DNA of 61,435 nt, filler included, from Hausera hauseri (GCA_046269625.1; 9 parts of 9 records of this genome joined end to end with filler, not necessarily neighbours in it); one strand, 5' to 3'. Counted from the whole stretch's first letter, positions 1-56,019 are shown. A program made the numbers and translations. Notes: generated by a model not told the origin, from the sequence alone.

Positions 1-38
1 TATCCACGATTAATATAACAGATTCAGCCGAGTCCACA

Positions 39-3000
39 TTGAAACACCCGAGTCCCTCATGGATCTCAATATTACTTTGGATACTCTCATTATTTATGTT
101 AAGTAAGATTTCTAGTAATGATGATGAGACGAATGGATCCTGGAATATAATACGTATCTCAACATTCAGTTGGAATGGACATTTCAATAAAAGAGAACCC
201 AAAACACTTAACGACTCAGGTTGCGTATCAAATGAATCCTCCGCAAATAATACAGAAACCCTACTGGAGTCTTATTACATTAACCAACCGACAGAAGAAT
301 ACTCAGACTATCGAGAATTAGCAGATACCCTAAAGGAAATCTGCAAAATACAACCAATATCAGATCAAGACCACCGCATGTACTCCTTATCAGAATTTAT
401 ACACGTCGTCCGTACTCTTGATTGGGACCGAAAAATGGTTAAACCGACGCGTGATAATGAAAATATTTACATCAGGAGAACATGGGCAACATTTGACTCT
501 TCCTTTTGCAGAGATGTAATGAGGCATAGACCCTTATTTATCGGAAGCCCATAAGAACGAGTGTTTCTTACTCATTTCTTAAGAGAAGAAATACCGTGAA
601 TCCCTAATATATATACTTACCCTATTGCAACAGACATCCCCATTATGCGATGTTTATATATCCCAAAAAAGAGCTGAGAAGGTGGGAGAATGATGCATCG
701 GATTATTCAAGAATTTCGGCGGAGATTTAATAAAAAAGAAAGTAAACAATTCATTTGCAGTTAATTGTTGGTTAACATATACGTTAATGACAATAAAGGA
801 CGATCTAGGAAAAGAAGAAATAGAGGAGATGGAAAAGGAAGAAACTCGGATACTATGGAATGATTATGTACGTAGAGATAGAGACACCATTTTAGCTAGT
901 AACGAAAACAAAGAAATTAGTTGACTGGAACAAGTAAGCACCAGAAGATTGTCCGACAATCTAAATGCTCTGCGTTACAGACTGCTATTTTATATGTTGG
1001 ATGACGACCAAGAGATAGCTGTACCTTTCAAAGGAGAAAGCGAAGATCTCATTTATAGTAAGACCATTTTGGAGCACTAAGACACCACACCCCAATATAT
1101 AGCTTCCACCATACTAAATAAGCCAAGACACTCAATAGATGATAAAAAATTGGTAGATGAAATACTGTACGATGTGACCAGACCGGATTCCACACGAAAA
1201 GTTTCATCGAACTTTTTATTTGACGGACAATCCTATGAGGAACAATACTACCAACAAGTAAAACTTGGTGATAATTATTCTAATTTAATACGAGTAGTGC
1301 GAGAATACCAAAAAGGAAAAGTACATCATGACTATTCCTCTCACAGAAAAAAGGATGTCATATCCAAACCAATTTAAAGGTCGGAAGACTAACGAGCTTG
1401 AATATTAACCCCTCTCAAGGAAACGAAAATATTCCTGTCCTAAAGAAATATTCCAGGAAGACTATACTAATACTGAAAATTGGAACGAATTATCTGAACC
1501 CATACAAGACGCCATGGACGAATTAAACAAGAACGGAAGCGAATATAAACCATGCAGAACCAGATGGCTACTTGCGTCAGACTTAATAGAAGCAACACAA
1601 GAGGACCTTAACATGACATCAATAACGACGACACCTAAAACTAACATAATTCTAGTCACTATTGCAAACGTAATAGATCCCGTAGGAGAATACAATTACG
1701 CGTTAGCCAGCCAGATAATTCCTTACTTCAGAACAGTAAATACTCTAAAAATAAAACCCAAGTAAACTCCCGTCAACCAGAGAGGAATTAAATCGAGTAA
1801 TGTATAGACTAGTATATCAATCGTTGTATCACTCTATTGTTAACTCATTAAAAATATGTCCCCAAGGCCAAGATCTTTTAACCACTATAAAAATCTACGC
1901 TTTATAGCAAATATAACCGAACAATGGTTAGACAATGTTGAATCAAAAGATGACCAATCTAGCAGTATACTTCATGACGGCCAATCCACTACTGTACTTC
2001 CTATATTTGGACAGACCCTTCATGAATGGGCCAGAGATTATAAATTGTTTATTGATTACAGGTAGCATAGATCAATTACCCAAAGAGGACCAAAAAGATT
2101 TCATGAAATTATATATGACCTTATATGAACCGTATTTTGATCGACTAAATCAGGAAACCGGAACAAACTTTAAAGAATCAGATTATAAATACCAATTACT
2201 TTTAATAGCTAGCATCTTATATACTTCTTAAAAAATTCCAGCCAATAAATCAATATCCTGCACGTTAAATGATTTTCAAACCAAAGTGTACTGTGAAGGA
2301 CTTTATTTACTTCAACAAATTTTAATGGAGATATCCTCATAACCTATATAGTTACAACCTATCAATATCATGATAGGGACCTAGAATGATATAGTGGGAA
2401 TACCATGCAATGAACCCATATGTACAAAACATGAATCATTGTTAAAATCCCGAATAGAAACACATTCTACATTACAGATAATACGTTATCTTTGGTCATT
2501 TGACCCATTAATAGAAAAGTACAGACTAACTCACGAAAAAATCATACTGTATGTAGATAAAACCAAATATCAATCTTTATTCGTCGGAAGCCGTAAAGAA
2601 CGTGTACTGATCTTTCGTTTCTTACGAGGAAAACCATTATTATTTACCATAGCGGACATTATTAGTCTTCTCCAAAGAATCTCACGGAATTAGTAGCAAA
2701 TAAACCTACGAAAAGAATTGCCAAATTGGCCGATATATGTCTAGGACTATTTAAGAGTTACGGCGAAGAGCTAACAGATAAAGTTCAAACGGATTTTTTT
2801 ATGATCAATTGTTGGATGACATACACACGAATGGCGATAAAAGATGATATTACTCAGGAAGAAATAGACGCCTATGAATAAGAAGCACGAATATTATGGA
2901 ATAATTATGTGAATCTGGATGTAAATACACCATTAATCCCGTTGGATTACGAAAATATAGATAAGTTCTACATGGTGAATTCAAGCGGATTTTCATGTAA

Positions 3001-5021
3001 GTTAGATGCCTTACGATACCATCTAATATTTTGTGAATTAAACGACAGCAAGGAAATAGCTAGACCATTTAAAAAGGAACGAGAAAGATTAATAAGTATC
3101 CGTCGACTAAGATCAGATAAAGAAAAGAAAGTGATAACAGATATGACAAAGAACTTACGACGACTAAATGCCTTCGAAAAATGTATCATGCGTATTTACT
3201 ATAATAGAGAATCATCCAAAATGGAAGAATATGAGGATACACCGCATAGCGACGATGATCACTATGAGATGAAAGGAAATATTAATATTAAATCACCAAC
3301 GGTAGTTGAGATACAACATAAAATATTTCAGTCCGACGTCAATAACGACCAAGCAGTGACCAGTGATAACGTCAACTCAAACAAACCCATGTCTATGAAA
3401 ATAATTAAACAAATAGCACAGAAAGAAATTACAGATCCCATTATTCATAAGGAAAATGACACCGACACCCAACCAGTATTAAGAGAAAACCAGTTTAGGA
3501 TAGTTAGTAACGGGTTCACCTTTTCAACATTAATATTACTTATTATTCCATTCATATTATTTGGAACGGCCGAGGCTACTTCTCCCACGGCAAATACTAC
3601 TCAGGAAATTTCATTAGTTTGGCTATTATTATTAATCTTAGTTAACTTAATGCTTCACATGAAAAAATCTGAACCATCAAGCAGAAACGAAAGGATTACT
3701 CCAACTGAAGGGCACACGATAATAGAAGAAGTTCCAACCATTAAACCAAAATATATGAAACGTCGAACACTAGCAAGAATGAAGGACATACCAATCACTA
3801 AACCTTTGTTATCCGATAATAATAACAAAAACGTCGACCCCACAAACGACTACTGCTGCTAGCAAATAGAGTCAAATAAATCCCTAAACCCCGTACCAAA
3901 CCCACTTCTATCACTATCTCAAGAAGTTGAACATTATAAAATAAAAAGGCTGCGAGAGTATAAGCGAGAAAACCAAATTTTTATCTAGAATTTTGATCAA
4001 ACAACAGAATGGTCAAATTTAGACGGCTCAGTACAATTAAACCTAGAAACTTATGCTAAAAATCATATGATGAATCGCCATTATATACAGTTAGGAGCAC
4101 AGAATGAAGATATTATCAAATATATAAAAGCGGAAATAAATTCATCATTCGGTATACTCTCAGAAGAAACGCAGATAATCATAGCCATAGTAGCTAACAG
4201 AGTATACTTAATAGCGGAACACCCCTATTTAACTGTTAGCAAAGTAGTCCCAACATTTCTTGATATAAATAAGCTCCGCAAAGATAGATATGAATTATCA
4301 CCTGAAGAGTATGAACTATATACCGTAGCCAACCGCTTGGCTCAGTGCCATTAGATAATAGAACCCCCACAACAGTACTAGAACAAAGCCCGTATAAACG
4401 GATAATGCTTAATGACCTCAGACAAGCATACGTAACTCACCTGGAATGGAAAAAGGAGATGAGACAATTCGACCTAGTCGGAAGAAATACACTATTAATG
4501 TACAAGAGCGGAATACAACTTTATCGAAAAAATAACGCAGACGTCTATCAAAGCATTCAATACGCGAATCGCTTATGGGAAACGCCTGATCATACCAGAA
4601 AAGAACTTATATCCTTCTATCTCGACATGTATAACAAATATTTCGAGCAATGTCAGAAGGAATCACGATATAATCCTAACACTCATCCCATGAGAGATAA
4701 TTTACTACTAATCACCAGCTTCCTACGACAACTTTCAAAGGTAGCACAGCATGAAGGTAGATCTTTTAGAGAACGCTACGAGAATGACCCAATAAACTGT
4801 AACTCAGGACTGAGAATATTTGACGAAATCATGAATGTGTCTGGCTTAAAGCTTTCATGGTATAACCACATGCATGAATTAGCCAAAGCTTGGAACTATA
4901 GATGTGGAATAAAATCCACCCACTTTGAAAATCGGAAACACGAGCTAATAATTATGCATAAATTACAACTATCAACTATACCACAACTAATAGAAAAAAT
5001 ACGATCAGTCGACTTACTAAA
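39..5021 (+). mobile_element. Decayed accessory (non-gag/pol) polyprotein region of a large Ty3/gypsy-like element, internally duplicated
   Basis: All long ORFs are on + and broken by stops/frameshifts. Peptides (PSWISILLWILSLFMLSK, EFIHVVRTLDW, PLFIGS, CIGLFKNFGG) match ORFs 3' of the integrase in contig 4 (SSWTSTLLLWVLSLLIMSK, ELIHYIHTVNW, PLFIGGMQER, CIGLFQNFGG). Confidence 0.6.
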
Positions 5022-5121: not shown

Positions 5122-6279
5122 GATTACCAACGGTTTCAATGATTTTCTTTGGAAATGTTTTTGAAGTTATCAAACAAACTAAATTATTCTGGCGATATCT
5201 CTTCTGAATACGATACAACGTAGCTATTCCACATGGAGGTTTTATAATTTTCTTTATTTCAAAAACAATTGCCATCTTTTAAATGATCCACAACCAAATT
5301 CTGAATGTCTCGTGAAATCATATTGCAACTGACTACTTCTAATGTGAAAATATTTATGCTATAAATTTCTGACAGCTCATTAAGTTTTCTACTGATTATT
5401 TGTTTGGCAGTTTGCCAAATTTCACTTCATATGAAAATATTCAAATTTTGATAAGCTATCAAAAGTAAGTTTCCACTCCGTAAACTTATTAACTTCGAAA
5501 TCGTACTTCACGTGCTTTAACACTGAACGATAATCAGTAAGCGACTAAAACCAACGTAATTGAATTCAACTGAAATCACACTCAATTCTGCATCCAAGTT
5601 GGTAATTTATAAAACTGTATTCGATATCCAACGGACTTGACTGATAATTATTCTGATTCGCTGACTCTTGAATTATTTTCTCTTTCGTGGTGGTAATTTA
5701 TTTTGTCTGATTATTGATTTCTCCCTTTGCTAACTAACACACTGTTTTTGGCTGGCTATAAGTCTATCTATATATATTCGTGGAGCAAGCACGTGTGTAA
5801 CGATTAATATTTTCTTGAATTAACTACGAATTGTTTTCGATTTTCAACAATTTCTAATAGCTTTATTTTCGTAATATTTTTCAAATATTAATATAAATTC
5901 AACACATGCTCCAAAAATTATTAAAGATGTGGCAAACCCTTCTGATTATTGTTGTCTAATTATTTCCAAGTTTTCTAATTCATACAATGACGTATAAGGC
6001 TAAGGTAACATACAATTCTACACGTTGACAATGAGTGTGTATAATTTTACAACATTTCGCCTCTAAGCGGCATCCTCGCATGTGCTTATTGCGTCAGGAA
6101 AGGTGACGCCCAATTGCTGTCGTCGCAGTAGGTCCAATCTACTCCGGAGACTACTGTCATCGACTGGATCAGCTTGGAACCCTATTTCATCTGCTTCTAA
6201 TGCATAACTGGTGCTGGGTTTGGTTTGAATTTGGACTAATCGGTTACACTCACCATTCGAGAAATATTTCAATCCGCTT

Positions 6280-6425
6280 GCCTGAACCCGACATATTTGG
6301 TACGTGGTTTTCCCGTTTTGTAGGCTTCATGTCTGTAAGCAAGTACGACAATACTTATGACGGCATTCCTTGTTATCCAATTTACGTATCCTTGCGAAAT
6401 GTTCTGTTTACAAACCGTGCAGATA
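6280..6425 (-). pseudogene. C3HC4 RING finger domain (frameshifted)
   Basis: Joining frames gives CTVCKQNISQGYVNxDNKECRHKYCRTCLQT*SLQNGKTTYQICR, i.e. C-x2-C...C-x-H-x2-C-x2-C...(C>Y)-x2-C. Confidence 0.75.
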
Positions 6426-7589
6426 TATTCGTCTTCGTTAGTGTTTTCTTCATCGAGGTCTATATTGGGAATAATTCTAATCCGTTCAAACACTAGACCA
6501 TCGTGGTCATGATATAGGTAACCATGAAGTTCCTTTTGTAGAATGTTAATCCAGCTCTTTCAGGGGTCATATTTTATCGGTACCAACGTCCGATCTATAA
6601 CGGTTTCTTTATCCAGATCGGGAACGTTGCCTTCCCTCTGGTATGCATGGTATTGCTTTTTCAACATTAACTTGATCTGGGCGTCCACAGGAATTGACAG
6701 TTTGCATGTTCTCTTTGATTTAAATACTGCAGCCAAGTATTATCCTATTTCCGTGTTTTCGCAAACGTATGCGCCATCCGGGGTATCGTATATTCCTTTG
6801 TTTTTCACATAAGATATTGCTTCTCTCTGTTTTTGGTGACTGCAGTACTATGCTGTAATCAATAACTGTGGGTAGTCTTTAGCTGTTGAATAATGGATAT
6901 TTACTTGAGATTTTTTTCTTAAGTACGTTCACTCCAGTGAATATCTGTGTAGAGTCATTTTCTGACTTTCTTCTTGGTGCTTGGGTTTGAACTTTTCTAT
7001 AGACCTTTTCTGACTGGGTTACGTCTATTTCGTTTGGTGGTTCTGTAATCCTAGTGTAAGTTTGCGAATTTCGCTCTATTACTTTCTTTTCCTTTTGGAT
7101 TTTTGCCTCCTTTGTTCGTAGTTTTGGAATTTGATTATCCTCGAGCGATTTTCTCTCTTACGGATTTTCTTGCCCCTTTGTCTTCTTCACGGTTTTTCTT
7201 TTTGTATAAGTAATTGTAGAGTGATAGTTTTCTCTTGTTTACGGATACTGCGGCTTCATCATTCTTTTCCTTGCAAATGCTGGACTTTTCCTCATGCTTT
7301 TTCAAAATTTCTTGTATCTTGAAGGTTGTTTGTGGTTCAGCAATCTTCGTTGAAGCCTTCGAGCCGAAGCTGTAACTCGTACTAGGTCTGTCGTCCGTTT
7401 TCAGTCGTAGAACGACTGGTTCTGTGTTGGATTCTTGTATGGTTATTCGATAATTTGCTCGTTCTTTAGACTCGATAGTTCTAGGAGGAGAATAGGGTCG
7501 GAATTATCGTCTATGTCTAGTACTCAGTTTTTCTGAGTTAGTGGGGCTTTTCAAATTCGTACTCGGGTTGTCTGAGGCCCATTCATGGT

Positions 7590-8114
7590 TCATTTTAATT
7601 CTGCATTTATGTCACGTAAATATTGGGAACATTGACTAACTGTTAATAAATGGCTCATTCTGACGTGCTTACCGCTCAATGATTCGAGAATTAACTTAAA
7701 TCGGCCTTCAACGGTCGGCAGTAGGTAACCATTTCTTTCCTTAAGGGTATGTTCCATTCGTTCTATTATTGTAGGATGGGTTTATATTTCTAGCATTCCT
7801 ACTATATGTGTGAGGGGCAACTTCAATTTTTCCACAATCTTTTCTACCTGATATCCCACAGGGATACATTGGTACAAACAGTGTGTCAATTCTTCGCGGA
7901 CCAGTTCGATATCCTTACCGTGGGCTAGCTGTTCTTTCTTTACTCCTGTTACTTCCGCGTAAGTTTCCCTTATCCTTTTTCTTGGACTGATTGTTTTTGA
8001 GTAAATTTCAACGTCCTCCGTTTTCCGAACGGATACTTCGACTGGAATATAGTTTCCATCATTTCCTCCATAATTCAATGCTACTATTCTGGTATTTCTT
8101 GCATCTTGTATCAA
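7590..8114 (-). pseudogene. DEDDh 3'-5' exonuclease-like domain (REX4/ISG20/DnaQ fold), acidic catalytic residues apparently lost
   Basis: RIVALNYG...IYSKTISPRKRIRETYAEVTGVKKEQLAHGKDIELVREELTHCLYQCIPVGYQV follows the DEDDh pattern VAlDcE...y...vkP...i...t.vtGI....l......v..el...l....lVGH. Confidence 0.55.
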
Positions 8115-8783
8115 ACTGAAGTTGTGTAGATGTCCGTATTAGTCCTTTTCAGTAGGTTCCTGTTTAAACTTTAAGGGTGGTAACTGAACAATGGGCGCGT
8201 TCTCATAAGTCACCTCAATCATCAACTTAACCGGTAATACACCACCTCGGAACTCTACTTCACAACTGTAGTGATAGAAATCTCTGCTGTTGATTAGAAA
8301 GGTGCTGTATTGGCATTGACTTCCTTGCCAGGAATCCCAAGCTTGATCCTTTAGTCGATAGTAAATTTCTTCATCTCCTAAATGAATAAATTTATTTTGA
8401 TGGTAGACGGGTTCGTATTGAAGTAATTGTCGCAAGGCATATGCTTTCGCATCTTTATCTTTACTCAGCGTATAAACGTACGACTCTGTTCTCTTCAGTG
8501 GTTCCTTTAAGATTATTAGAGATGACACTGGTCTGTTTGTATTCAACGAAAAATTTTCCTTGCAATTCATTATTGATCTGTCTGAATATCGACTTGGATT
8601 GGGAAATTAATACTGTCGCACACTTCTGTAGAAAATCGTCGATACTACGTCGCTCGTTATTGTGGTCATTTGAATACTTACCGGTCTGAAAAACAAATAG
8701 TAACGGTTAATCATAAAACAAAGTGTGGTTTTAAACCAAAATCAATTCTTTGTTTGATGATAGAATAACCCGATCTGTAATTG

Positions 8784-10082
8784 TCAGGTTACTTTATCAT
8801 AGAGATACTCTTGCGGTTCCAATTTCCTTAATTCCCGCTCTAAGATTTTAGCACGGTTATTAAGACACTTTTTGGTAACTAGTCGAAAAGTTGCTATGAA
8901 TATTACTAGCACAAACGTTGACAAACCTGTAATCATTATTATTGGAAAAACCGTGGGCTCTTTAGGTTTTATAGTGACAACTTCTACGGATTTGTCGTGT
9001 TCTGTGTCTTTACTCAAGTGTGGTTCTGCCTGAACTTCATCTAAGGTATGGAGTGTGAAGATTTGACTCTGTTTGTCTTTCGCGCTTATTTGTATTATGT
9101 ATTCTGGTTTCGATTTTAATGAGTTGCATTCAGTCTGATAAGTACTTTTCAACAAAGTACTTTTCGATGATTGTACATTGTACGACAAATTTATTTCGAC
9201 AGAAAACACTATTTTATGTTGCTGTGTCAAACACTTAACGGGAATTTTAGCTATTTTTCTCTCAGGCATTTTCACTTGAGTAGTTGGTTTGCTCGTCGTT
9301 ATTTCGACTACAATTTGTCAGATTTTATTTTTTGGATAATATCTTCCTAAATAGATGCTCGATTTATTTATTTGAGTTCCATAGAAGTCGAACTGAATTC
9401 TGTACTCGTAACCTTTCGGCATGCTACAAAATGGATTTGGTCTCGCGTTTCCAATGATACAATAATACGGAGATGGACTTGACCTATTTATTTTGATAAA
9501 TTGAACTGAAATCTCCTGGTTGCTTGGCAATCTTCTTTTTGTTTTTATCTGGATTCATTTGTCGTTCTCGTCTCTGGAGATCCCAATTATATTTTCGTCT
9601 AACACCCATTTGATCGAATCTGTCGATTGGACTATATCGCTGAAATCTGTTACACTAATTCGCTCTATGATGGGTATCACTAGTTTTAATGGTGGTCTTA
9701 TCGCTCCATGTGTGCATTCGTAGTTTTCATAGTACATCCGTATTGTGAATGTATATGTGTTTCCATAATTTATATTGCAACATCCTTCTTGATATCCGTA
9801 AGGAAGATCACAATGGGTCATTACCCGCTTGTTCACGTTCAAAAGAACTATTTGGTATTTTACTGGTTTCCTGGCAGACCTGTCTGTTCCGAATAGCACA
9901 CAGTTTCTTATTGGATCTGTATTCCGGGCCTTGAAGGCATCTAAAACACTTACGTCGTTTCTCTTCATGTCTAGCAACTCGCTTTTCATTCATTTGTTTA
10001 GTATTTGAATCATTCCTTTTTGAGCCTTCGCTTATGGGATATTCGAAGCTATTAATGATAATGCTAATACTATCTGCATGTA
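8784..10082 (-). pseudogene. Type I membrane protein-like ORF following integrase (signal peptide, ectodomain, C-terminal TM)
   Basis: YMQIVLALSLIASNIP*AKAQ signal-like segment at ~10080-10021; Cys-containing fragments 9555-9989 and 9318-9530; TM VFPIIMITGLSTFVLVIFIATFRLV followed by a basic tail. Confidence 0.55.
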
Positions 10083-10176
10083 AGATATGGGTTTGGCAGT
10101 TATGGACGAGGCTTTTGTTTTTCTATCATTTGGTTTCTGATTCACTTTTGCATCACTAAAAAGCAAATTTTATAGT

Positions 10177-11283
10177 TTATCCGGTTTCATTTCCGTTTTC
10201 ACGACTCTGCATCGATACGACCTCTTCATTTCCATTTTTATTAATATAAACTGTAGTGGGTGTCGTCCTGATAACTTCGTATAGTCCTCTTCCAGTACGC
10301 GTAAGTTTTAACCATGTACCCTTTTTGGCTACGGGATAGTGCGCATAAACCCAATTCCCGATTTCTAAATCATGCGGTTTCGCTTTTCTATCGTATTGCT
10401 TTTTAAATTCTTCTTCATATTCTAGGGATAATGTTTTCGCGAGTTCCCAACATTTTTGTAATCCAGTTTGTAGAACTTCTGCAAAATTTGGTTTTAAATC
10501 CTCGGGATTTGCTTCATACGGAATCATTTCTAAGTCCGTATGCAATGCTGCTTCTCGTCCATACATCATAAAGAATGGCGTAAAACTTTTCGCAGTATGT
10601 AGTGTCGTATTGATAGCGAATTGCGTACCTTCTAGGAATTCGTCCCAATCCTTCTGATCCTTTGCGACTACTGTTGATAATATTCGTATAAGGGTGGCGT
10701 TCATACATTCAACCATTCCATTACATTGAGGGTGGTAAGATGTCGTGGTTAATCTCTCAATTTTGAATATTTTGATAATTTTGACAAACAACTCACTAGT
10801 AAAGTTTCTTCCTCGGTCAGTTAGTATCTGTTCTGGCGGTACGTATCTACAGATCATTTTCCTCACTACTGCCTATGATAAAGTTTCTTCTTTTGATCGT
10901 GTAAAGCTACTAACTCTACGAAATGAGTTAAAGGATCAACGCGTGTTAATATATTTATTATTCTTGCGAGATGTAGGTAATGGTCCTACGATGTCCATAG
11001 ACATAGCTTGCATTGGTCTATCTGGTAAATTTATCGGTTTGAGTTGCGCTACGTAATTTCGTACTTTCCTTTCTTTAGTTGCGCATACTTCGCAAGCGCT
11101 TGCCCAATTTTTTACATCAATATAGATAATTGTCCAGTAGTATTTGTTTAGTATCCTTTCTAACGTCTTTTTCCAGGACATGTGTCCAGCTAAATACAAA
11201 TCATGTTCAACCATTAAAACTTCTGTTCGTAAATTCTTGCGTATAACTACTAATTTCCTTCCTTTCCAATCATAATACAACAC
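10177..11283 (-). pseudogene. pol: Ty3/gypsy integrase (HHCC Zn finger, rve core, degenerate GPY/F)
   Basis: EHDLYLAGHMS...CEVCA, MDIVGPLP, ILTDRGRNFTS, SYHPQCNGMVE, GRGLYEV. Confidence 0.95.
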
Positions 11284-11322: not shown

Positions 11323-13123
11323 TCAATGTCTTTGTAAGTGTTTCTTTAACTGGTGACCTTTGGGCATTTCGTCTGTTTCAGTATATTCAATAATTTGCTG
11401 GGTAACTTTATCTTTCTTTTGTTCGATTGAAATTTTGATCGCTTTATCTAACGTTAGGATACGCTGTTGATATACTAACTCTTCGAGTCGGTTTTTCTTC
11501 GTTGTCATATTAGTACTCGTTTTCGTCTTCAATTTTGATAATGAGTCAGCATCAATATGCATAGTACCAGGTTTATATTGAAATTCAATATTATATCTCG
11601 AAATTTCTTTGATCCATTTATTCAATCTGCATGTAAGGTTATTTGCTCGTCCTTTTAAAGTTGTAACTGCCTTGTGATCAGTAAAGATTATTATTTTCTA
11701 TCCATACTCATAGACGTTGAAGTATCTCAAGGCTTCTTTTACTGCTAACGTTTCTAATTCCATTACCAAATAATTTTTCTCACCTTTCTTTAAGTTGCGT
11801 TCTCCGTAAACGATCGGATGTTCCAATTCTTCATCCTCGCGTTTCTGTGCTAATTCATATCCAATACCTTCCTTACTTGCATGTGTTTTGATAATAAATG
11901 GCAATTTGAAATCAGGATATCTTAACACTAGTTCGCTGGTCAATATATTCTTCATTTTATCAAACACTTTTGTTCAACATCCGTCCTTTTCCATTTGATT
12001 CCTTGTTCAATAATCGGTATAATGACGCATTTATTTTCGAATTATCTGGTAAGTAATCAGCATAATATCCACATAGGCTTAACCAATGTCTTAATTCTTT
12101 TTGGTTGTGAGGTCCCATACAGGCCGAAATTTTGCTCAATAAGGATTTATCTAGTTTGGATCTTCCCTTTCCAACTATCTTCCTGAGGTATGATACGGCA
12201 TTCTGAGCCCACTTACATTTCTTTGCATTCAACTTTAACTCAGCTTGTTCTAATTTTATGAGTGTGTCTTCAATGTCTTTTAGATTCTCTTGTTCTGTTT
12301 TTGATGCGATCATTACGTCGTCTAAGTACGCAAATGCATGTTCAAACCCCATTAACATTTTATTCATCATGTTGATGAAAATAGCTAGTCCAGTGGTAAT
12401 TCCGAACGGCATAACTGTAATTTCATATACCCTATCGTGGGTGTTAGACGCTGTTTTATAACGATCCTCATCCTCAATCTCTACCTGCCAATATCCGGAT
12501 TGTAAGTCCAGAGTGGTAAACCATTTTGTTCCTGAGAGCCTATGTAGAGCCTCTTTTACAGATGGTAGGGGAAATGAATCTTTCATCATAAGAGTATTTA
12601 ATGCTCCGTAATTGATACAAAATCGATGTTTCATGGTACCTTTCTTTTTGACCATAAGAAAAGTTGAGTACCAAGATCTAAAACGTGGCCTAATTATATC
12701 GGCCTTAAGCATCCGTTCTACATCCTTAGTTATCTCAAATCTTAAGGAATGTTGTAGTGGATACCACTTTGGCATTTTCTGTTCCTCGAGATCTATTTCG
12801 TCATTGGAACCGGGCTTTTTCTTCAGTGGTATAGCTAGTCTTAATGCTTTTGCTCGACCAATGCCTTCTTCGTCCCTAGCAATAATTAATTTGTAGCGGC
12901 ATAGTAACTCATAAAATCGACAATAGACTTCTGGTGAGAATTTAGTGTGTACATGAAGTGCAAACTCGGCATATTTGTGTGGCTTCTTTTCAATAGTTAT
13001 CGCTGATACTTTGTAAGTGTGACTCAAGGTAGTGTTCGCGTATAACTTTACTGGCATTGGCGCGTTGTTCATTATTTTGACTGGTATTCGACCAGATGCT
13101 ACACAGATTAATATATTATTCAA
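11323..13123 (-). pseudogene. pol: Ty3/gypsy reverse transcriptase and RNase H
   Basis: RFCINYGALN, LDLQSGYWQV, VMPFG, AYLDDVMI; RNase H PFIIKTHASKEGIG, ELETLAV, YKPGTMHIDADSLS. Confidence 0.95.
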
Positions 13124-13324: not shown

Positions 13325-13640
13325 GTCTACCGCAATATTTGGTAGACGTCTTAATACATCGCATCCTAATACTATATCATCCGTCAAGTGTTCAATTATA
13401 GAAAATTCATGTTGGAATCTCTGGCCCATTATCTCGATATTAGGATTCCATTTGAACCTCGGTCTCGATTCTTATCCGAAATCTCCTATGCTTCCGAGAT
13501 TGATTGCGAGAGGTGGCCTCAAATGAGTTCGTAACGATTTTGGTATTGATCCGTCTTTTATAAATGATTTTTCCTATCCGGTGTCTATTAACGCATATAC
13601 TTCCCAATCGTCAATACTATTTTTGGCGAACGGCCTACCT
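13325..13640 (-). pseudogene. Retropepsin aspartic protease
   Basis: GRPFAKNSIDDWEVYALIDTG*EKSFI ... DDIVLGCDVLRRL. Confidence 0.85.
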
Positions 13641-14289: not shown

Positions 14290-14626
14290 GTCTCTTAATA
14301 CACTTTCAAGAATTTTCCGAAAGGAGTTATGATTGTTGTCAAAATTTTACACGAAAATCCAGTTAAGGTAAATATTTCGTAGCCGTTAATAACGGGCTGA
14401 ATTACTGCTTTGATTAGTTGTATCAAGAAATAGGTGGCTAGGAATACAGATGCTGCTTGTCAGAAAATTAAAAATCTTCCCCAGATTTTGTACAATACTT
14501 CCGTGGTAACTCTTTGATAATGATTAGCTACGAGTAAGGATTCCAATTTTGCTTGATAGCGAGTATCGTCTATTACTGTTGACATAGCTGTATTCAATTC
14601 ATGTGTATGCTGACGAGGAAAAGCTA
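14290..14626 (-). pseudogene. C-terminal membrane-proximal/TM region of a chuvirus-type envelope glycoprotein (truncated by contig end)
   Basis: AFPRQHTHELNTAMST...KIWGRFLIF*QAASVFLATYFLIQLIKAVIQPVINGYEIFTLTGFSCKIL resembles the recalled consensus FP...LNT...W..F..FG..sa.....i..liK..i...i.GY.l....G.S..ll of chuvirus-like G in retroelements; absent from the ORF track because of an internal stop. Confidence 0.6.
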
Positions 14627-14726: not shown

Positions 14727-15690
<964 letters not shown>

Positions 15691-17814
15691 TTTCGATAAT
15701 TTACTCAGTAAATTGCTATCACATCTCTGTATGATATCCAATATTGGAATAATAATATTGGAAGAGTTCTTTTGGTAATGATGTGACAAATTCGCAGCAA
15801 CAATCATGAAGAAATTCTTGGTTATTTAAATTGAGACTCTTGTTTGAATGACTGACGTCCTTGTAAATGTCCTTGTAAACATGAACAACCAATTCCTGCA
15901 TGTTTTTACGACCATCTGACACCAATGAGGTTTTCTTGTTAAACCAGGGATTTTAAATAATTCCATCAAAAAGCACTATGAACACATAACAACAAGAATT
16001 GATTTATTTAATTATTTTTTTTATCAATTTCTTTAATTTTTTATTTACAAGGAATTTATTAATACAGCTTTACATAGCATAAACCCAAAAATAAATACTA
16101 TCAAAAGCAAGATGAGGATTTCAATATCGAGTGATATCACTGTTAGAAATTCTAGAATTATTTTCATTTTATTAATTATGTACAGTCATTTAAAAATCGA
16201 TCGACCAAGATCCTGATCACAAACAATTCTCGAAACACACCTTGTAGTAGATTTAATTGTAGAATCTTTAATGATATAATTTCGCTCCGTGATAAACTTT
16301 TCGTCTTCCAAATCTCCGAGTACAGTATCGTGGACCGCTAAAATCATATTTCAGGAATTTACTGTTTTACACATGACATTACTGTCAATCAGCATAGATA
16401 TAACGGCAGCTCGAACGTTAGCAAGAAAGATACGTATCCTAACCAATTAATAGTCATGAATAACTTGTATCAGAGTTTTAACACTAACAGAGTCAATAAA
16501 ACCACACGTTGAAAAATCAATGATTATATGTTTATATGATTTCCAGTTTGATATGATTATATGAGACTGCTAGAAGCGCGATCACGCTGAGAATACATTC
16601 TGTCCTCGTCAGTATTTTCCACGCTTGGCTTTAGTGATTGACAGTATAATTGGTTTTATCATCATTATGTACCAAATCGTCGGCGATTACGAAAACGAAT
16701 AACAAAATAGAAAACAATAACAGTGTATTTACATGTAAAATTCAAAGAAGCACGACCTCGTATATACCGCTGATGTTTTATCAGAATTATTAAAGAGCTC
16801 CTAATATGTCTGCAAACAGTATGGAATGGTATGTGCTGTAAACATTTGATAAGTGCTGGTCCTGTTCTTGGACAATTGATCGATCCATTCCTTTCATTAT
16901 CACAATTACGTTAACTATAGAAAAGGAAATTGAATTACAATTAAGAATTTTTATAACTCTAATGAAATTAATGTCAAATATGGAAGAATCTTTCAATTCC
17001 GAGGCACATTTCAAAAGTGATAGCATTGGAAATTTATCTAACTTTGCAATTTTACCAAATTTACCTTGGCAAGCCGGAAGAACAGCCGAAGATTTACGTG
17101 GTATTGCAGTAACATGCTTATGGAGTATTCTGGTTGAATACTGTAAATTGTCAAAAACTTTATTTCCGAAATCCGTTCGCTGATTTGTCATCATTTGTTT
17201 GGACGGTATCCAATCTGGTGGGATTTATAGACAATTCTATTCTATACTCGACGGTGAAACTGATACGATGGTGTGAGATTTGTTATTGTGTACCGTTCGT
17301 CTGGCAACCATTTTTTCTATTTCGCCTTTTATTAACGATTCCTATTTTTTGTTTTTCTCATATGTTTTTGTTCATAACGTCCACCGTTGACACACCATCG
17401 ACGCTTTTAAACATAGCCTTCAGTTGTGGTTGCCATTTCAGACCCATTTACTTCGATACTTCAAATACTTCAAAATGTTTACGGTTCCCCAATATTGACA
17501 ACTGTCCATTCACTTCGTGCAGGTTCGCTGACTTATCGTTCATTACCGAGGCCGTGTCCTTCACGTTGCAAATTAACATGCAAAGCGGTATAGCAATTGC
17601 TGAATACTTTGCTGCAACATTACAGCTCATCAGACTTGATTTAAAAGAATATGACGTAAAGACAGCAGGCCTTACGGCTATTCCTCACCTTATGAGAATA
17701 AGTATATGTATAACTAGATTTGACATTGTTCCGACCCCTAAACGTGATAGAAGTTATACCGATTCGTTGTCAATGATTCTCCACAGTACGCATAACGAAG
17801 CTGTTGAGTTCTGA

Positions 17815-23665: not shown

Positions 23666-25283
23666 GTTACTCCTACTTACATAGGAGTAAGTATATATAC
23701 TCCTACTAGAATACCTCCTATTAGTATATTATGTATATAATAACTAAATCGAATGCTGTATTGGATTTTTACGAGTGGATCAATTAATTTTTCCGCACCT
23801 GTAGCTTACATTTTAATGATAAATGTACGTCTAGTCAAAGTTTAATGTACGAGCCAAAATTAAATGACAAAATATTGCTTCAAAGATAACAAATTAATAA
23901 CAAGTTAGTTAAAAGCAAACTGATTTGATTGAAACCATTGCATGTGATGTCAAGTGTGCTCATTGTCTTGAATAAATAACCACGGTGAATCCGTGAAGCA
24001 TCATCATATTCACCTCATACTTTACCGCTGATTCTGATTGTTCAATAAAACGACAGGGTTCAGGTGACGCATCAAGCTGATTTTTGATATACTGGACATT
24101 GAAAGTGCTGGTTCAGAGGATAATTCATCAGACAAAGCTAAAGTCTTCCATCAATCAGGAGAGGTATACGAATGTACAAATCAGGTTTCATTGTGTCTGT
24201 GCTTACATGTATAGTGACATCAGTGGTGTTCTAGATTTACCGCTACAGCAATTGCATTTCGGTTACACTAGGAATCCAAAATTATCAGGTGCCTTATAGA
24301 TGTATTGCGATTTGATTCCCGCCCAAATTAACCAACCATTTTAATGATACACTTCCTCTATCATTTACCACATTACAAACAATAAAAACTCGTTCAATTT
24401 GTTTATTAAATTTGTCAGTATATCCCTTAATCTATAGTTCAACAAACAACATATTGAAATAAAATTGTGTGCATTTCAGCAACTAATTAAAGCATTTCGC
24501 TGAAATTAATTTTATTTCGGGAAAATTGGTACAACCTTTCATACTATAATTAAATTTACATTAAAAGTTACATATTTTACAGAAAACAGAATTCACCAAA
24601 TTTCTTAGTCTACGTGAAAAAACTCATTTTAGAAGTATATATTACATTGCCTAAAAGTTTGATTGCCGCTAAAAGAAACACTTAGATAAAACCTGTCTAC
24701 ACCANNNNNNNNNNNNNNNNNNNNNNNNNNNNNNNNNNNNNNNNNNNNTTAATTAATTAANNNNNNNNNNNNNNNNNNNNNNNNNNNNNNNNNNNNNNNN
24801 NNNNGAGAAGGTCATGACAAACATACACGCATTTTCTCTTCGACTTTGAGTAGCCTCTCGCATTTTTGTAACATTAACGTAGAACTGTCTATCCCACCCA
24901 AGCATCTAGTTGAAAAGAGTATTAAATATTAAGCGACATTTCTGGGTATTCGTAATACGCTAGCATCCAAAACTGGAAAAGTGATGCTTCTCTACGTTTC
25001 TGTTGAAGTTTTCAATCTGACTGAGGCTCTTCGTTTTACAGAAAGAGGTCAATTTTTTTGTTATTGTGAGGACACCTCCAGTCATACTCAGCGACATTTG
25101 TGAAGGTAGCACTGCTGCATGCTGTTTCGCAAGAGCTTTGTGGTGTTTTAAAACAAGTCCTCTCAAAATACACGAGCAAAATGGTGTTAAACTGCACGCC
25201 AAAAACAAGTGACTGCCGAAGGCAAACTATGCGAGGACATTAAAAACAGTTTATATGTCCTAAATAACAGAGGAATTGTTAAT

Positions 25284-25638
25284 GATTGATTGATTGATGG
25301 TCTTCCATCACCGCACGTTGGGTGAGCCCCGATAAGGGTTGTAGTCCTTAGGACTATGGAGTAGTGGCACTGAGCTTTCCTGTTGTAACGGTGATGTCTA
25401 GGAGGCTGGACCGAGGTCCTCAAGGCTTCCGTGCAATGCTTGGCCTGTTAGAAACGAACCACCTCACAACTGGGGACCATGTCCAACTTCCGCCAGTTAG
25501 CCAGCAGTTTTCCCTACCGTAGCCCGGGACGACGACAGGGACGTCTGGCAAAGGATCTTGGCCGACTATGGTTCGTCTGCCCTGGCACTGAGTATCAGGG
25601 TCGGCTATGGGTCGCCGTCCACAGAGCACCTCCGTCCC
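25284..25638 (-). mobile_element. Complete non-autonomous non-LTR retroelement (SIDE/SINE-like, probably RTE-derived) with 5' HDV-like ribozyme and (AATC)n tail
   Basis: GC-rich island; flanking direct repeats AGGAATTGTTAAT (25271-25283) and AGAAATTGTCAAT (25639-25651), 11/13 identical; AATCAATCAATC 3' tail. Confidence 0.85.
25492..25638 (-). ncRNA. HDV-like self-cleaving ribozyme with long J1/2 insertion
   Basis: Minus strand: P1 GGGACG(25638-33)/CGUCCC(25531-26); P2 GCCAG(25549-45)/CUGGC(25496-92); P3 ACG/CGU; L3 UCCCUGU; P1.1 CC/GG; P4 hairpin; J4/2 CUAA with catalytic C at 25500. Confidence 0.85.
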
Positions 25639-28285
25639 AGAAATTGTCAATAAAGCCATACACCCGGATGCAAAAAAGGACCATATTATTTATTGGGAGA
25701 AAAACAAAACCTCATTATTCATTTCAGTTTGAAATCAATTCACCGCCTCTTTGTTGCAACATCGCTATCTCTCTATACATCGCAAGGAAACAACAAAGAC
25801 CGTCTGGCAAGTATTTAAAGAAAAGTCTCATTGATTATAGCTGAATCGTAAAAATCTAAACCTATGATTTTACAATGATATTGATATCAAAATAATAATG
25901 TACCCAATGTGAGAACGGAACAAATTTAACAATAAACATAAGGCAGTAAACTACTCTTATAAGTTCTCTCAGTGATTTCCTCTATTTCTTCTCTTTTTAA
26001 TTCGTCCTTTATTGCCATCAGTGTATAAGTCAAACAAACAGTTGATTACAAATGCATTAGATGTTCTTTCATCTACCAGTTCTCCTCCGAAATTTTGAAA
26101 TAATCCGATACATTTTTCGCCCACTTCTTTAGCTTTTTCTTGAGTTACATATTTACCACATAATGGAGACGTTTGTTGCAATAAAGCAAGTGTATTATTA
26201 GTAGATATTTTTGGGATTTCTTTTCCGAAATAATGAATAAGGAAATTTCGTTCCTGCATACCGCCAATAAACAAAGGTTCGTATCTTGACAAATGGTTTG
26301 AGCATTTCAATATGGTCCACTGTTCCTCATTATCATTATCATCATAATCAACCGGTTAAGTGTACTTAATTTCCAATTAACAGTATGAATATAATGGATC
26401 AGTTCTATCGGAGTAAATGTTTGAGTAAATAACAACCTCAGCTCACATATTTCCCTCAAATCTTTTGCTAATTTATCATAATTTACGCAGTTGCATATTG
26501 ATTGATATTCATAAGGAAACTCCAAGGGTGATTTTTTTACATACTCGAATTGTTTTTGTATCAATGTATTAGTGAGTGTATAATCAGATATTATTTCCAT
26601 AACATCCGAAGCGACTTGATTTGGCGTATTGTCCATTTCTTCATCAACAGTATATGTTCCATCTTCTTCCTCATCATCGAGTGTGTCATTCAAGGAATTT
26701 GGGACTTTTATTAGTTTTTTTGCGTTTAGAGAAACGTTCGTTAGATTTGTCATCGTCGTTGCCAAAGAATTTACTCATTATCAACAACGAAAGTACCCAT
26801 AATAATAATGTTGAGGTCCATGAAGAATTAGGGTGATGAGATTTAGTCTTGACTGCTTCTGTTACAATGATCATGGAGAGAAAACATATTCCAATAAGGG
26901 ATAACGTTCCCAGTGAAAATGTGGAGTAACCCTTGATACCTGATGATTCGCGCTTTTTATCCTTTTCTTGAAGGTCTTGAATATGCATTGCTCTCGTTTC
27001 ATTAGCTATGTCGTCCATATATTTAATGCTATTTCCCGCAAATTGTAATCAATCTATCTTCATCCACTGTTCAGGAGGGAGATTACTATCTAAAGGCTGT
27101 CCCATTCTTCTGTTCCAGACTCGTTTAACCTCTTCTACCTCATTAATGAGTTCTCGACCTCCTTTGTTCATATTATGATGTTTAAAGATTTTTATTGCTC
27201 GACTAGCGGCTACATAATAGTGATGTTTTGATTTTCCTGGACTAGCTAAATCAGGAATCGTATAATATACTTCTTCGCAACTTATCTTCAAGAAAAATTT
27301 GTCCAGAGCGGTTAGTGTATTAAAATCTAATTTTAGGTACTCGCATATTAATTTTTTTATGGGTCTATACTGTTCATCCGTTATTCCGCACTTCTCGTGG
27401 TATTTACTACGGAAATCTCTTAATTCCGTTATACTGTTTATAGGTCTTTTGACTAATTGTTGTGCATGATTTATGCGTTCTGGTGTGGCTAACACAAAAT
27501 TCTCTAGCCGGTGTCGATTAGCGGCTTCTCTAGTTAACGGAAGTGGTGGTAGATTCCCCCTTTTCGTTGAGGCAATTCAAAATAATTTTGTTCAATTGGT
27601 TTAACTTCTTTACATTGCGCCTGCTTAGTAAGGTCTATTTTTCTTAGCTTCATATCGTTATACACTGGGAATTTGGGGCTCTCTTCCGGTTGATGTTTTT
27701 CAATTTCCTCTCTCAGTCGTTTAATATTTTCTTCAGCTTCTTCCAGCTTCTTACCTAAGACGATATAAATCACGGACGGCTGCATCTCGCTTGTGGTCTG
27801 CATTTCCATTAAGTCAGGATATATTGAAGTTGTTGATATAGGTCTTGATAGGTCTTGAAGCGAATTTCGTGGTAGTTTCTGTGGGACTCTTGCTATACTA
27901 TTTATCGAACAAGTGTCCATGTCGGTTATCAAAGGCAAGAGTACTTGTTTTCTTGCTTGATCATTCAGGGAGAAATTATTGGTTTCTTTATCATCAACTA
28001 TCATACGGCTGTTAAACATATAGTATGCTAATATCAACAGTAACATGACCGTACTGCTCCACGCATTTGTAGCAGTAGTCGTGCGCGTTGGTTGAGCATT
28101 TGCACATCCGAATAATATAAGCAGTATTAGCGTCAACAGGGTTATTGTAAACAATTTAAAGGGACTACCGAAAATTGTAGGTGGGGTATTAATTGCAGGT
28201 ATTTCCATTATTCGCGTTTGCGTTATTTTCCGTGCTAGTGTAGATTCCGTACTTTGTTCACTGATTTGCTATAATGTAGCATAAT

Positions 28286-29455
28286 TCAACGGGGGGGGAC
28301 AGCCTCTTCTCCTGGTGCGAACCACCATTGATCATTAGGTTGAGGCATGGTATCTTGGTAACCTTCGCAACTGAATATGATTGATCTTCCGATAACTTTC
28401 AGTTCTGCTCCCGTCAGTTTGTATAGTACATCTAAACCAATAATAAGATCAGAATACGACTCTTGTGGGTTGGCGTAACATGTAAAATCAATATACCCTA
28501 TGGTTAGATCCAATTTTCCGCATGCTTCGGGTATATAATATGTAATTCGTCTATATAATCGTAAACTTATACGAGTCAGCGGAGTAGTGGTATCAAGTTC
28601 CGCATTAACGTACTTACAGTACACCTTGACCAATATTGGTATCAACAAAGGATAATCATTATAATTCTGACGATAATGCATATTATATAATAACTCTAAC
28701 CTTTTTATCTCTTCCTCGAGCTCGTTCGCATTTTTTCCATATTTCTCCAAATCCTTCGTTTTTTCCAACGAATTTGTAGCTACGTCTATTACTATATCGT
28801 AATCTATTAGCGTATCTCTACCTATGCTACAAGGAATGTTGGAATTTTCTAGTATATGGTATAAAATCTTTGATCGCTTGTTTTTTAATTTGGTCAAGGC
28901 TGTAACTACGCCTATCACCTTTAGCTGATTGCCATTTATTAGTTTGTGGTTTATCTCACTACTTTCATTTAATTTTAGTTTTAAAATTTCTATTGTAGTC
29001 TTACTTAAGTAATTTTTTGCTGCTCCTGTATCTATTATTGCTTCAATTTTAACTTTATTTATAGTTATAGTTGTAGTTACCATATTATTTGATCCATCTT
29101 CTATAAACGCCATCATTGTATTTTTATCTTCCGATTGCATTCTGTTCCTTAGGGGATACCTACAAGGTGGTGTTCGTTTTTGTTCCGTATTCTCGTCCTC
29201 CAACTGCATTCTACTCCTTAATGGGTACTTGCAAGGTGGTGTTTGCTCCAGTTTGCGTTCTTTAGCTACTGGTCTACATCGTTGTACACTCATCCAAGAG
29301 GTTTTATTTGGATTAGACAAATTCTGCAATTCTACACTTGATTCAGTTATTTGTAATATCTTGTATGGTCCTTTGTATGGTAATTTCAATTTCGGGCTTT
29401 CGCCGTGTTTACAAGTCTCATCTAGTATATTAACCAAGTCTCCGATTTGGTACAC
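28286..29455 (-). CDS. Integrase C-terminal (GPY/F) region fused to two retropepsin-like domains
   Basis: 389-aa open frame with YKGPY, a duplicated PPCxYPLRxRMQxEDxNT, a DTGA protease and a second DTT protease-like domain. Confidence 0.7.
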   Translation of the reverse strand: MYQIGDLVNILDETCKHGESPKLKLPYKGPYKILQITESSVELQNLSNPNKTSWMSVQRCRPVAKERKLEQTPPCKYPLRSRMQLEDENTEQKRTPPCRYPLRNRMQSEDKNTMMAFIEDGSNNMVTTTITINKVKIEAIIDTGAAKNYLSKTTIEILKLKLNESSEINHKLINGNQLKVIGVVTALTKLKNKRSKILYHILENSNIPCSIGRDTLIDYDIVIDVATNSLEKTKDLEKYGKNANELEEEIKRLELLYNMHYRQNYNDYPLLIPILVKVYCKYVNAELDTTTPLTRISLRLYRRITYYIPEACGKLDLTIGYIDFTCYANPQESYSDLIIGLDVLYKLTGAELKVIGRSIIFSCEGYQDTMPQPNDQWWFAPGEEAVPPR

Positions 29456-29479
29456 ATGGGGTTTTGTCTTCTTGTCGTA

Positions 29480-30127
29480 CTAATCTTTGTAGTTTTCTTG
29501 TTGATATTTAATTTTTAATCCTGCTCTGATCCATGCTTCTTGTAATATTTCCTGTAGAACTGTTGCATAATCCAGTTCCTCCATCAGCTGTGACTGTGGT
29601 TGTTTATATTCAAGGTCAATTGACATAATATCTCCTCTGCCATACAATAAAAAGAAGGGTGATTCTCCAATTGTCGTATGAAGACTTTGTCGGTAAGCAT
29701 ATACACAAGGTTTTATGTATAGATCCCAATCAGCTGGGTGATCATATGCGTAACTGGATCTCATAATTGAAAATTGTTTATTAAAAGCTTCTACCGCGCC
29801 GCTGGCTTGTGGATGGTAGGGCGATATAAATTTATGATTAACTCCTAGTATTGCCAATACTTTTTCCATAAGTTTGGTGCAAAAATTACTTCCTCTACGC
29901 GATATCATTGTCATTTGTACTCCATATTTGAATATTATGTCGTCTACCAATCTCCTGGCCATAACATCCGTGGTTTGGTTTACCATTGGCATCGCTATTG
30001 GAAATTTTGAGTGGTAGTCAATAGCTGTAAGTACACATGTATTTCCTCTAGCGATGGTTTGTAATGGTCCAACTATATCAATGCTTATACAAACGAATGG
30101 TGATGCTAAAACTGGTACTGGTTTCAA
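29480..30127 (-). pseudogene. pol: Ty3/gypsy integrase catalytic core
   Basis: ISIDIVGPL, AIDYHSKF, ISRRGSNF (catalytic D mutated), PYHPQASGAVEAFN. Confidence 0.92.
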
Positions 30128-30339
30128 TGGTGTTTTTCTTGCTTGGAAATTTCCTCTTCTTTNNNNNNNNNNNNNNNNNNNNNNNNNNNNNNNNNNNNNN
30201 NNNNNNTTAATTAATTAANNNNNNNNNNNNNNNNNNNNNNNNNNNNNNNNNNNNNNNNNNNNCGTTTTGATACACGTTTCTTGCCGCCGGACACCTGTTT
30301 GGTAGGGTTACGTTTAACAATCGTTTTCAGAAAATTCTT

Positions 30340-56010: not shown

Positions 56011-56019
56011 AAGTACGCG

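Follow-up and report, generated by a model that had tools for sequence, protein, structure and literature searches.

Among described systems, the closest to the locus considered here are the GAG-ENV-POL errantiviruses of nematodes, bryozoans and flatworms, in which, as here, a viral-type fusion glycoprotein gene stands before a Ty3/gypsy pol (Chary and Hayashi, PMC13524379). An HSV/gB-type ectodomain with cysteine bridges and a gag upstream of env characterise that group; of env, the last ~90 residues are present in our contig, and gag would be situated beyond the contig end. In the table of that study, no LTR is listed within the 3 kb searched for 8 of the 9 flatworm and 4 of the 10 bryozoan elements; in the other six bryozoan elements the interval from pol to the 3′ LTR is, by our own arithmetic, 1.1–2.2 kb, enough to accommodate cargo. 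Unlike in the present locus, no 3′ accessory genes are described for these elements; exonuclease, RING and fibronectin go unmentioned in the text and in seven supplements, and DEDD goes unmentioned in these supplements. A second likeness is offered by the giant planarian LTR elements Burro and GYPSM1 (PMC6431247). Burro possesses, between its gag and protease, an env-like region that matches mononegavirus glycoproteins, as well as extra domains tied to ubiquitination or apoptosis, including a RING-type AIR1 motif. Its env lies in frame within the gag–pol polyprotein, a dUTPase-like segment is found between PR and RT, BIR, BCL2, MATH and ankyrin domains are present, and the element exceeds 25 kb. 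However, the extra domains of Burro sit in or upstream of the polyprotein, whereas those described below lie 3′ of the integrase, and neither DEDD nor exonuclease occurs as a whole word in the Burro review.

A DEDD-fold ORF downstream of pol is also carried by the bdelloid LTR elements Vesta and Juno (PMC5408684). Theirs is RNase D-like (DEDDy) with intact catalytic residues, env has been replaced and there is no RING, whereas the predicted domain in our element is DEDDh-like (on the REX/SDN1/ISG20 side), dead and fused to a RING, with env also present. The association of a RING with a catalytically dead DEDDh-fold nucleic-acid-binding domain (PXL) in one protein is known from PML-1 (PMC13659232); PML-1, however, belongs to the antiviral proteins of the host and combines an N-terminal RBCC and EXO-SAM module in the opposite domain order; no homology is implied. 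Similarly, the accessory protein CERV, which the invertebrate LTR element Cer1 produces from a spliced mRNA (PMC10309623), contains a pseudo-enzyme domain; this dead domain, however, mimics a GTPase, CERV acts in genomic RNA export, and no RING accompanies it. Finally, a viral DEDDh domain is found in the arenavirus nucleoprotein, the ExoN of which is used against innate immunity (PMC7968707); unlike ours, this ExoN is catalytically active, is part of a nucleoprotein and has no RING in its chain.

The locus lies in a window of 61,435 nucleotides (the whole stretch of Hausera hauseri DNA that was analysed, filler included), where a decayed retroelement occupies a contig at 5122–14626 on the minus strand. 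Pfam profiles recovered a pol in the order PR-RT-RH-INT, from which we assign the element to the Ty3/gypsy (Metaviridae) LTR retroelements: a decayed aspartic protease (13343–13639; RVP, E = 1.7e-4), a reverse transcriptase core (12185–12652; RVT_1, E = 1.9e-25), an RNase H (11593–11913; RT_RNaseH, E = 2.8e-25) and an integrase with H2C2, core and C-terminal parts (10177–11241; Integrase_H2C2, E = 1.3e-14; rve, E = 2.4e-7). The ~100-residue segment between PR and RT had no Pfam match at E ≤ 10. About 660 nt ahead of the protease match, at 14301–14579, a viral fusion glycoprotein gene was detected, of which the contig end leaves only the C-terminal portion with its TM region (PF24664, Monjiviricetes_fusion, profile positions 511–601 of 653; E = 1.2e-13, 50.4 bits for a cut-off of 27). 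Because this gene end precedes the protease, the element is classed, on its predicted gene order, as env-before-pol, like Burro and the GAG-ENV-POL errantiviruses; env and PR are in different frames in the decayed window copy. By eye, two stretches resembling Zn knuckles can be made out between env and PR, but they have no Pfam support and are not claimed.

As the 9.5-kb contig already starts inside env, the element must be well over 9 kb, in agreement with the first-pass annotation. Its more general proposal, that a large LTR element carries a virus-like set of accessory genes, is likewise supported, all named features being found where it had placed them, on the minus strand. Conversely, the 3′ LTR or PPT that it had suggested looking for beyond 6063 did not appear: there was no LTR and no convincing PPT, a purine run at 5728–5718 is not followed by TG, and no long direct repeat (LTR pair) was found on the contig. 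No Rfam family matched the contig at E ≤ 1. From 5′ to 3′ on the minus strand, the gene order is thus env fragment, PR-RT-RH-INT, ORF2 and ORF3.

ORF2 (8784–10079) is predicted to encode a type I membrane protein, with a signal peptide (10079 to ~10023), an ectodomain, a TM segment from 8951 and a short tail. It extends in a single frame from a Met at 10079 to a stop at 8784–8786 and contains four internal stops in 433 codons, where 31.6 are expected from composition (P = 3e-10); the signal-like hydrophobic segment has a KD value of 1.49 and the TM one of 2.57. A signal peptide–ectodomain–TM protein had been annotated at this place, and is indeed seen there. The accompanying idea that the integrase reads on into the signal-peptide segment did not hold: in the window copy the integrase has its own stop (10177–10179), while ORF2 starts from a separate Met in a different frame, so that read-through is not seen. 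Tentatively, the ectodomain may consist of three FN3/Ig-like modules, as suggested by FN3-like strand motifs at 9773, 9422 and 9119 (spaced 117 and 101 residues). Three such motifs were reached in 1 of 5000 shuffles, a figure that is no valid P value because the pattern was written after the motifs had been seen, and module-to-module alignments lacked significance, their scores being attained by 32, 394 and 280 of 500 shuffles. Ig_J/fn3 clusters are atlas neighbours of ORF2 at 0.87–0.88, which, being below 0.9, is a lead only. No Pfam family matched ORF2 at E ≤ 1, nor did fn3, and no homologue was found in the PDB or in a protein search among lengths of 258–823.

ORF3 follows on the same strand and shows six successive parts: an N-terminal domain with no assigned family (8140–8652; 52% and 38% identity to the homologues P0009 and P0010, frameshift near 8470); a DEDDh-like domain without the ExoI and ExoII catalytic residues (7593–8100); a basic, poorly conserved linker (6882–7590; several frameshifts, 25% identity to P0009) with 22–23% K+R, a figure inflated for Lys because the coding strand is A-rich; a conserved domain ahead of the RING with no assigned family and no credible Pfam or PDB match (6430–6886; 41% identity to P0009 598–759); a C3HC4 RING finger (6291–6421); and a C-terminal tail (6063–6290), with similarity to P0009 as far as 6195 and a stop at 6063–6065. 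P0009, an uninterrupted 870-aa protein, aligns with ORF3 over five collinear blocks that span 8643–6195. Since this homologue presents the same order of N-domain, DEDDh-like domain, basic linker, pre-RING domain and C3HC4 RING, the DEDDh-like domain, linker and RING of ORF3 are read as parts of a single predicted protein. The pseudo-nuclease and RING E3 of the first-pass annotation therefore both stand as domains, but not as separate proteins. The family is tiny, with four matches among 1.84 billion representatives; a profile search returned only P0009 and P0010, compared here as proteins alone (source contigs of 16,242 and 12,445 bp), and the window piece used as query retrieved no homologue among longer proteins.

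Taken by itself, the window protein shows a weak resemblance to DEDDh nucleases in this second domain (PolC exonuclease, E = 0.15). With the family profile, all four PDB matches at E ≤ 1 were DEDDh nucleases (PolC, 5.6e-5; SDN1, 0.0023; ISG20L2, 0.13; ISG20, 0.64), P0009 as query matched DnaQ (E = 8e-4), and the domain matched phrog_192 (1.1e-4). Pfam RNase_T gave no match at E ≤ 0.1; the top atlas rows were RNase_T or arenavirus nucleoprotein clusters, the latter in second row, as a lead only. Taking SDN1 as reference, the D-x-E of ExoI is replaced in all four members of the family (N-Y-G in the window, within an ALNYG at 8081; N-T-G in P0009; N-L-A in P0010; T-Y-G in P0011), a Glu standing one residue past the ExoI position in P0009 and P0010. 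The Asp of ExoII (position 7859) is absent in the three members that reach it, P0010 ending earlier, and no His-x4-Asp pair of ExoIII is present at the place expected by eye; this last register is an alignment by eye because the only fold model, a single-sequence one of P0009, was useless (pLDDT 31) and was left unused. P0012 carries four RNase_T repeats, of which one shows D-C-E and another AINYG; as its likeness is confined to the exonuclease core, it does not enter the count of catalytic residues.

The window RING, interrupted by a frameshift and a stop, retains seven of eight ligands, and its 3′ half matches zf-C3HC4 at E = 0.002. In P0009, all eight ligands are present in C3HC4 spacing and the match (E = 2.6e-7) is above the Pfam cut-off, so that an E3-type RING can be retained as a predicted domain. 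Both the inactive-looking DEDDh exonuclease and the C3HC4 RING proposed at first reading were accordingly recovered by profile search. Nothing in the sequence names the target of the RING.

Taken together, we would give about an even chance to the reading in which a Ty3/gypsy element with a fusogen before pol carries two 3′ accessory genes, the predicted role of the ORF3 product being to bind RNA and, probably, to mark silencing or restriction proteins of the host with ubiquitin. ORF2 and ORF3 would be expressed from spliced subgenomic RNAs, with acceptors in the two intergenic gaps. One candidate acceptor, suggestive by its position, lies in the INT–ORF2 gap (10156–10168, one of three sites at a relaxed threshold); another, just upstream of ORF3 (8686–8700), is the strongest on the coding strand of the contig and the only one at a strict threshold (shuffle mean 0.51). 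The number of acceptors is not above chance (3 versus a shuffle mean of 1.4), with thresholds chosen after inspection, and the ORF2–ORF3 gap has only a modest folding potential (z = −2.0, equalled by 9 of 200 shuffles). The dead nuclease domain, helped by the basic linker, may hold RNA (that of the element, or the 3′ ends of small RNAs) without cleaving it; RNA binding by a dead DEDD domain has precedents in the PXL of the RING protein PML-1 (PMC13659232) and, as cited in PMC5408684, in Maelstrom/EXD1. The RING would thereby be placed beside host proteins bound to RNA, for example PIWI/Argonaute complexes or RNA sensors; these could then be ubiquitinated and removed, while ORF2, on the cell or particle surface, might act as adhesion or attachment partner of the fusogen. 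ORF3 would most likely be an RNA-tethered E3 ligase acting against host silencing, a role comparable to that of accessory genes in complex viruses.

Several other explanations have to be weighed against this reading. That ORF2 and ORF3 are not functional parts of the element, and represent a neighbouring or nested repeat, or host sequence passively captured beside pol only here, seems quite unlikely. No LTR closes the unit, and in run X1, which may be the window's own sample, the bins of the cargo are 10–100 times shallower than those of pol, with none of the eight pieces listed bridging the INT–ORF2 junction. However, a lower cargo depth is expected, since at 80% likeness the pol bins also take in other families, and each of the 13 bins overlapping the cargo has coverage, for the most part from diverged contigs (of the 8,986 records aligned to the contig, no more than 209 are at least 99% alike); depth, which when summed does not give copy numbers, is lower over the linker than over the domains. 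It counts against the main reading that no other locus carrying this cargo or this pol was found among viral contigs, metagenome contigs, prokaryote genomes and phages; the single prokaryote locus retrieved resembled the pre-RT segment alone (68 aa, 28%). Against a foreign origin, both genes lie on the pol strand with gaps of only ~100–130 nt, and neither ORF3 nor P0009 has introns. Moreover, because the density of stops is alike (9 in 1237 codons for pol, 4 in 433 for ORF2, 7 in 874 for ORF3) and the A-rich strand bias is unbroken from env to 6127, the data fit a single unit whose parts decayed together. It is also unlikely, if slightly less so, that ORF2 represents another envelope or fusion protein, or a processed tail of the pol polyprotein, instead of a separate adhesion-type protein. 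ORF2 does occupy the usual env position with a signal peptide and a TM, ~30 open codons precede its Met, and copies in run X1 vary by indels along the element, including near the integrase end, so that the frame relation of integrase and ORF2 may vary among copies. Yet a furin-type site (R-x-K/R-R) is absent, the ectodomain contains only nine cysteines, no fusion-protein family is matched whereas the upstream fragment matches one strongly, and the integrase stop of the window copy argues against a pol tail. As a fusion-glycoprotein gene is already present upstream of the protease, ORF2 is probably not the env.

With regard to ORF3, a once-active exonuclease, comparable to the ORF3 nucleases of rotifer Vesta/Juno and deprived of its residues by decay of the window copy, is largely refuted and very improbable. 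The window copy is decayed throughout and rotifer LTR elements do carry nucleases with intact motifs (PMC5408684), but the uninterrupted P0009 and two more relatives are also devoid of these residues. ALNYG as the decay of an active motif was rejected for this reason; the loss of the ExoI acidic pair in all four members instead indicates that the predicted dead nuclease is a conserved trait of the family. It is doubtful that ORF3 is instead a Rev- or CERV-like regulator of the element's own RNA, which would bind unspliced genomic RNA and promote its export or stability, the RING serving complex assembly or turnover and not anti-defence. An element whose two 3′ genes are probably spliced needs its unspliced RNA exported, as Cer1 of Caenorhabditis elegans achieves through CERV, a spliced protein with a pseudo-GTPase domain (PMC10309623), and the basic linker could carry nuclear signals. 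Nevertheless, no similarity to CERV is known, the domains described for CERV include neither DEDD nor RING, and export does not need a RING with all its ligands.

An extension of the ligase reading, which we regard as rather unlikely, would see here an enveloped invertebrate retroelement lineage with an independent toolkit of the complex-virus kind, combining a two-part entry system (a separate FN3/Ig-like attachment protein working with a chuvirus/gB-type fusogen, the gene of which precedes pol) with an RNA-tethered ligase that would suppress the piRNA pathway, its dead DEDDh domain gripping small-RNA ends so that PIWI/Argonaute complexes are destroyed.

To our knowledge, animal retrotransposon proteins that fight host silencing are rarely known, and invertebrate elements carrying env have been catalogued for gag, env and pol only. 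The conserved fusion of a dead nuclease and a RING, with an intact natural homologue, provides a concrete and assayable candidate for counter-defence, and the unannotated 1–4 kb behind pol in env-before-pol elements deserve a systematic look. If ORF2 is indeed an attachment protein, the element would offer a parallel to the two-protein entry systems of larger viruses.

The contig at 5122-14626 (JBJURY010353264.1) carries a Ty3/gypsy element with env ahead of pol, plus genes for two orphan or little-known products: a membrane protein without relatives, and a conserved accessory protein in which a pseudo-nuclease is joined to a RING, the adjacency of pol and cargo being read from this decayed copy. 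Window contigs are separated by N-TTAATTAATTAA-N linkers, and stops were translated as X before the Pfam search of this contig. On the minus strand, protease, RT, RNase H and integrase follow one another in Ty3/gypsy order. In this copy the integrase has a stop of its own (10177-10179), and the read-through into the membrane protein proposed by the first-pass annotation is not seen: the two are not fused. The first 380 bases of the contig, 5′ of the protease, match PF24664 (Monjiviricetes_fusion; E 1.2e-13; 50 bits, where 27 is the cut-off; positions 511-601 of a 653-position profile), a viral fusion glycoprotein (env) fragment absent from that annotation; env thus lies ahead of pol. Monjiviricetes comprise mononegaviruses and chuviruses.

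Planarian Burro elements are reported to have the same order (PMC6431247), as are nematode, bryozoan and flatworm errantiviruses, whose env are all of gB type, a protein that chuvirus-like glycoproteins resemble (PMC13524379). The likeness to Burro and to GAG-ENV-POL errantiviruses lies in env preceding pol, whereas cargo 3′ of pol is a feature of this element. As the contig leaves out gag and the greater part of env, the element is probably at least 13 kb long. No LTR pair was found on this contig; depth in run X1, a sequencing run whose contigs were compared with this one in bins, falls to 7 at 5439-5755, hence the element may end near 5750. By eye, and without Pfam support, 5122-5400 (-) resembles the start of a Tc1/mariner transposase.

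The cargo, namely ORF2 (8784..10079, -) and ORF3 (approx. 6063..8652, -), is real. Stops number 4 in the 433 codons of ORF2 (31.6 expected), 7 in the 874 codons of the six ORF3 pieces and 9 in the 1237 codons of pol, and each piece is the most open among the three sense frames. An A-rich strand bias extends from env through the end of ORF3, fading below about 5600. The equal decay of pol and cargo is compatible with one unit inserted and aged together, without proving it. Contig pieces of run X1 that align at 80% likeness number 8,986 (only 209 at 99% or more) and cover all 30 bins. Summed depths, which are not copy numbers and may come from the window's own sample, were 32-384 in cargo bins (one spike excepted) and 2,553-27,254 in pol bins; ORF3 linker bins (32-55) were thinner than domain bins, and the three exact-match pieces listed had depths of 5-9. 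This coverage of the cargo indicates that it is repeated in the source, and no piece bridging integrase and ORF2 was found among the 8 matches listed. The spike at 8609-8925 (15,693 versus about 100-150 on its flanks, with loose ends at 8707) indicates that a much more abundant repeat has a short piece in common with the ORF2-ORF3 gap; this piece can form a hairpin of modest stability (z -2.0).

Of the acceptor-like sites in coding orientation, the strongest (8686) lies directly 5′ of ORF3 and a weaker one (10156) directly 5′ of ORF2; the counts of such sites are within chance, and two of the three fall in the two short gaps. A GTAAGT donor-like site (8681-8686, -) stands only 4 nt past the site at 8686. 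Near their starts, P0009 and P0010, two relatives of ORF3, are similarly Phe-rich, then Val-Ser, which may reflect a conserved micro-exon signal; their Phe-rich starts may represent the pyrimidine tract of the acceptor in translation.

The ORF3 family is tiny, with 4 matches in a search of 1.84 billion representatives. P0009, an uninterrupted protein of 870 aa (source contig, 16.2 kb), aligns with the window from 8643 to 6195 in five collinear blocks (25-59% identity), which makes the exonuclease-like domain, the K/R-rich linker and the RING parts of one protein; all three had been noticed earlier, albeit as separate frames. Two additional conserved domains are of unknown family. P0010 (333 aa; source contig, 12.4 kb) spans the N-terminal part, and P0011 is a distant relative. 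The P0009 RING retains all eight ligands and scores above the Pfam cut-off; that of the window is broken, with seven.

Searched against PDB at E ≤ 1, the family profile returned four matches, all DEDDh nucleases (PolC exonuclease, SDN1, ISG20L2 and ISG20). Read from the alignment to SDN1, the ExoI Asp-x-Glu is replaced in all four members (N-Y-G in the window, N-T-G in P0009, N-L-A in P0010, T-Y-G in P0011), in agreement with the inactive-looking exonuclease initially described. The ExoII Asp is a hydrophobic residue in the three members reaching it, and ExoIII, by eye only, seems lost too. A Glu one residue past the ExoI position occurs in P0009 and P0010 and is absent from the window and P0011. 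Decay of a once-active site, at first rated a fairly probable origin of the window's ALNYG, was overturned by these homologues with the same loss. P0012 (804 aa, from a 4,990-bp Logan contig), which shares the exonuclease core only, consists of four tandem REX4-like RNase_T repeats; in most of them the catalytic motifs are degenerate, and one has AINYG, resembling the window's ALNYG.

ORF2 starts with a Met at 10079 (-) and a signal-like segment, followed by an ectodomain of roughly 355 aa (9 cysteines, 3 N-glycosylation sites), a TM segment from 8951 (-) and a short tail. It lacks an R-x-K/R-R site and matches neither a Pfam family (fn3 included) nor a PDB entry; a homologue search restricted to lengths of 258-823 aa found none. 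Three strand motifs of the type found in FN3 modules lie at spacings of 117 and 101 residues, and Ig_J/fn3 clusters lie near the first module in the atlas (0.87-0.88); alignment of the modules to one another was not significant. The chances of an FN3-like fold are about even. Our best guess is an adhesion or attachment protein, a role favoured because a fusogen is already encoded upstream.

More LTR elements occur on other window contigs, as do kelch genes and genes for protein-primed DNA polymerases, a content that makes an animal genome the probable source. Another LTR-type element with cargo (24805-30162, -) begins with an integrase core (29480-30214, -). Past the integrase C-terminus, the open frame continues into a second aspartic protease (28286-29479, -; gag-asp_proteas, E 7.6e-7), after which come an ORF with two TM segments (27534-28268, -) and several orphan ORFs that extend to about 25970 (-). 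One orphan coding segment is shared with contig 1-5021 (616-768, +, and 26038-26190, -; 59% identity, 51 aa, E 1e-17), which therefore probably represents the 3′ cargo from a related family; an ORF with two TM segments on that contig (2882-3862) looks similar to 27534-28268 by eye, not by BLAST. Several decayed fragments of Polinton-like, protein-primed DNA polymerase B genes lie at 32169-36267, 40427-42407 and 47380-51258, two being 75-89% alike. A kelch-repeat gene (55572-56986, -) and a kinase fragment (15463-15825, -) are apparently intronless over the stretch read.

In the full-text literature searched, which takes in few subscription journals, neither a pseudo-DEDDh/RING protein nor an FN3-like membrane protein is described 3′ of pol, though an earlier annotation may exist; the same holds for the available parts of PMC5408684, PMC6431247, PMC13524379, PMC10309623, PMC13659232, PMC7968707 and PMC9040795. 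The features of the first-pass annotation are borne out, and its interpretation is partly supported.

A single chain, retained in distant relatives, combines a RING with a basic linker and a DEDDh-like domain that is catalytically dead; taken alone, this anatomy is very probable. The dead domain could serve as an RNA-binding module, a use described for PML-1 PXL (PMC13659232) and for the dead DEDD domains of Maelstrom and EXD1 (as cited in PMC5408684). In the main rival reading, ORF3 would resemble CERV (PMC10309623) and export RNA of the element itself. On the RING-based reading, the RNA-bound protein would ubiquitinate whatever sits on that RNA, and the likeliest targets for a mobile element would be silencing or sensing complexes. 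That ORF3 would act as an RNA-bound RING against such complexes is, as a whole, an evenly balanced proposition.
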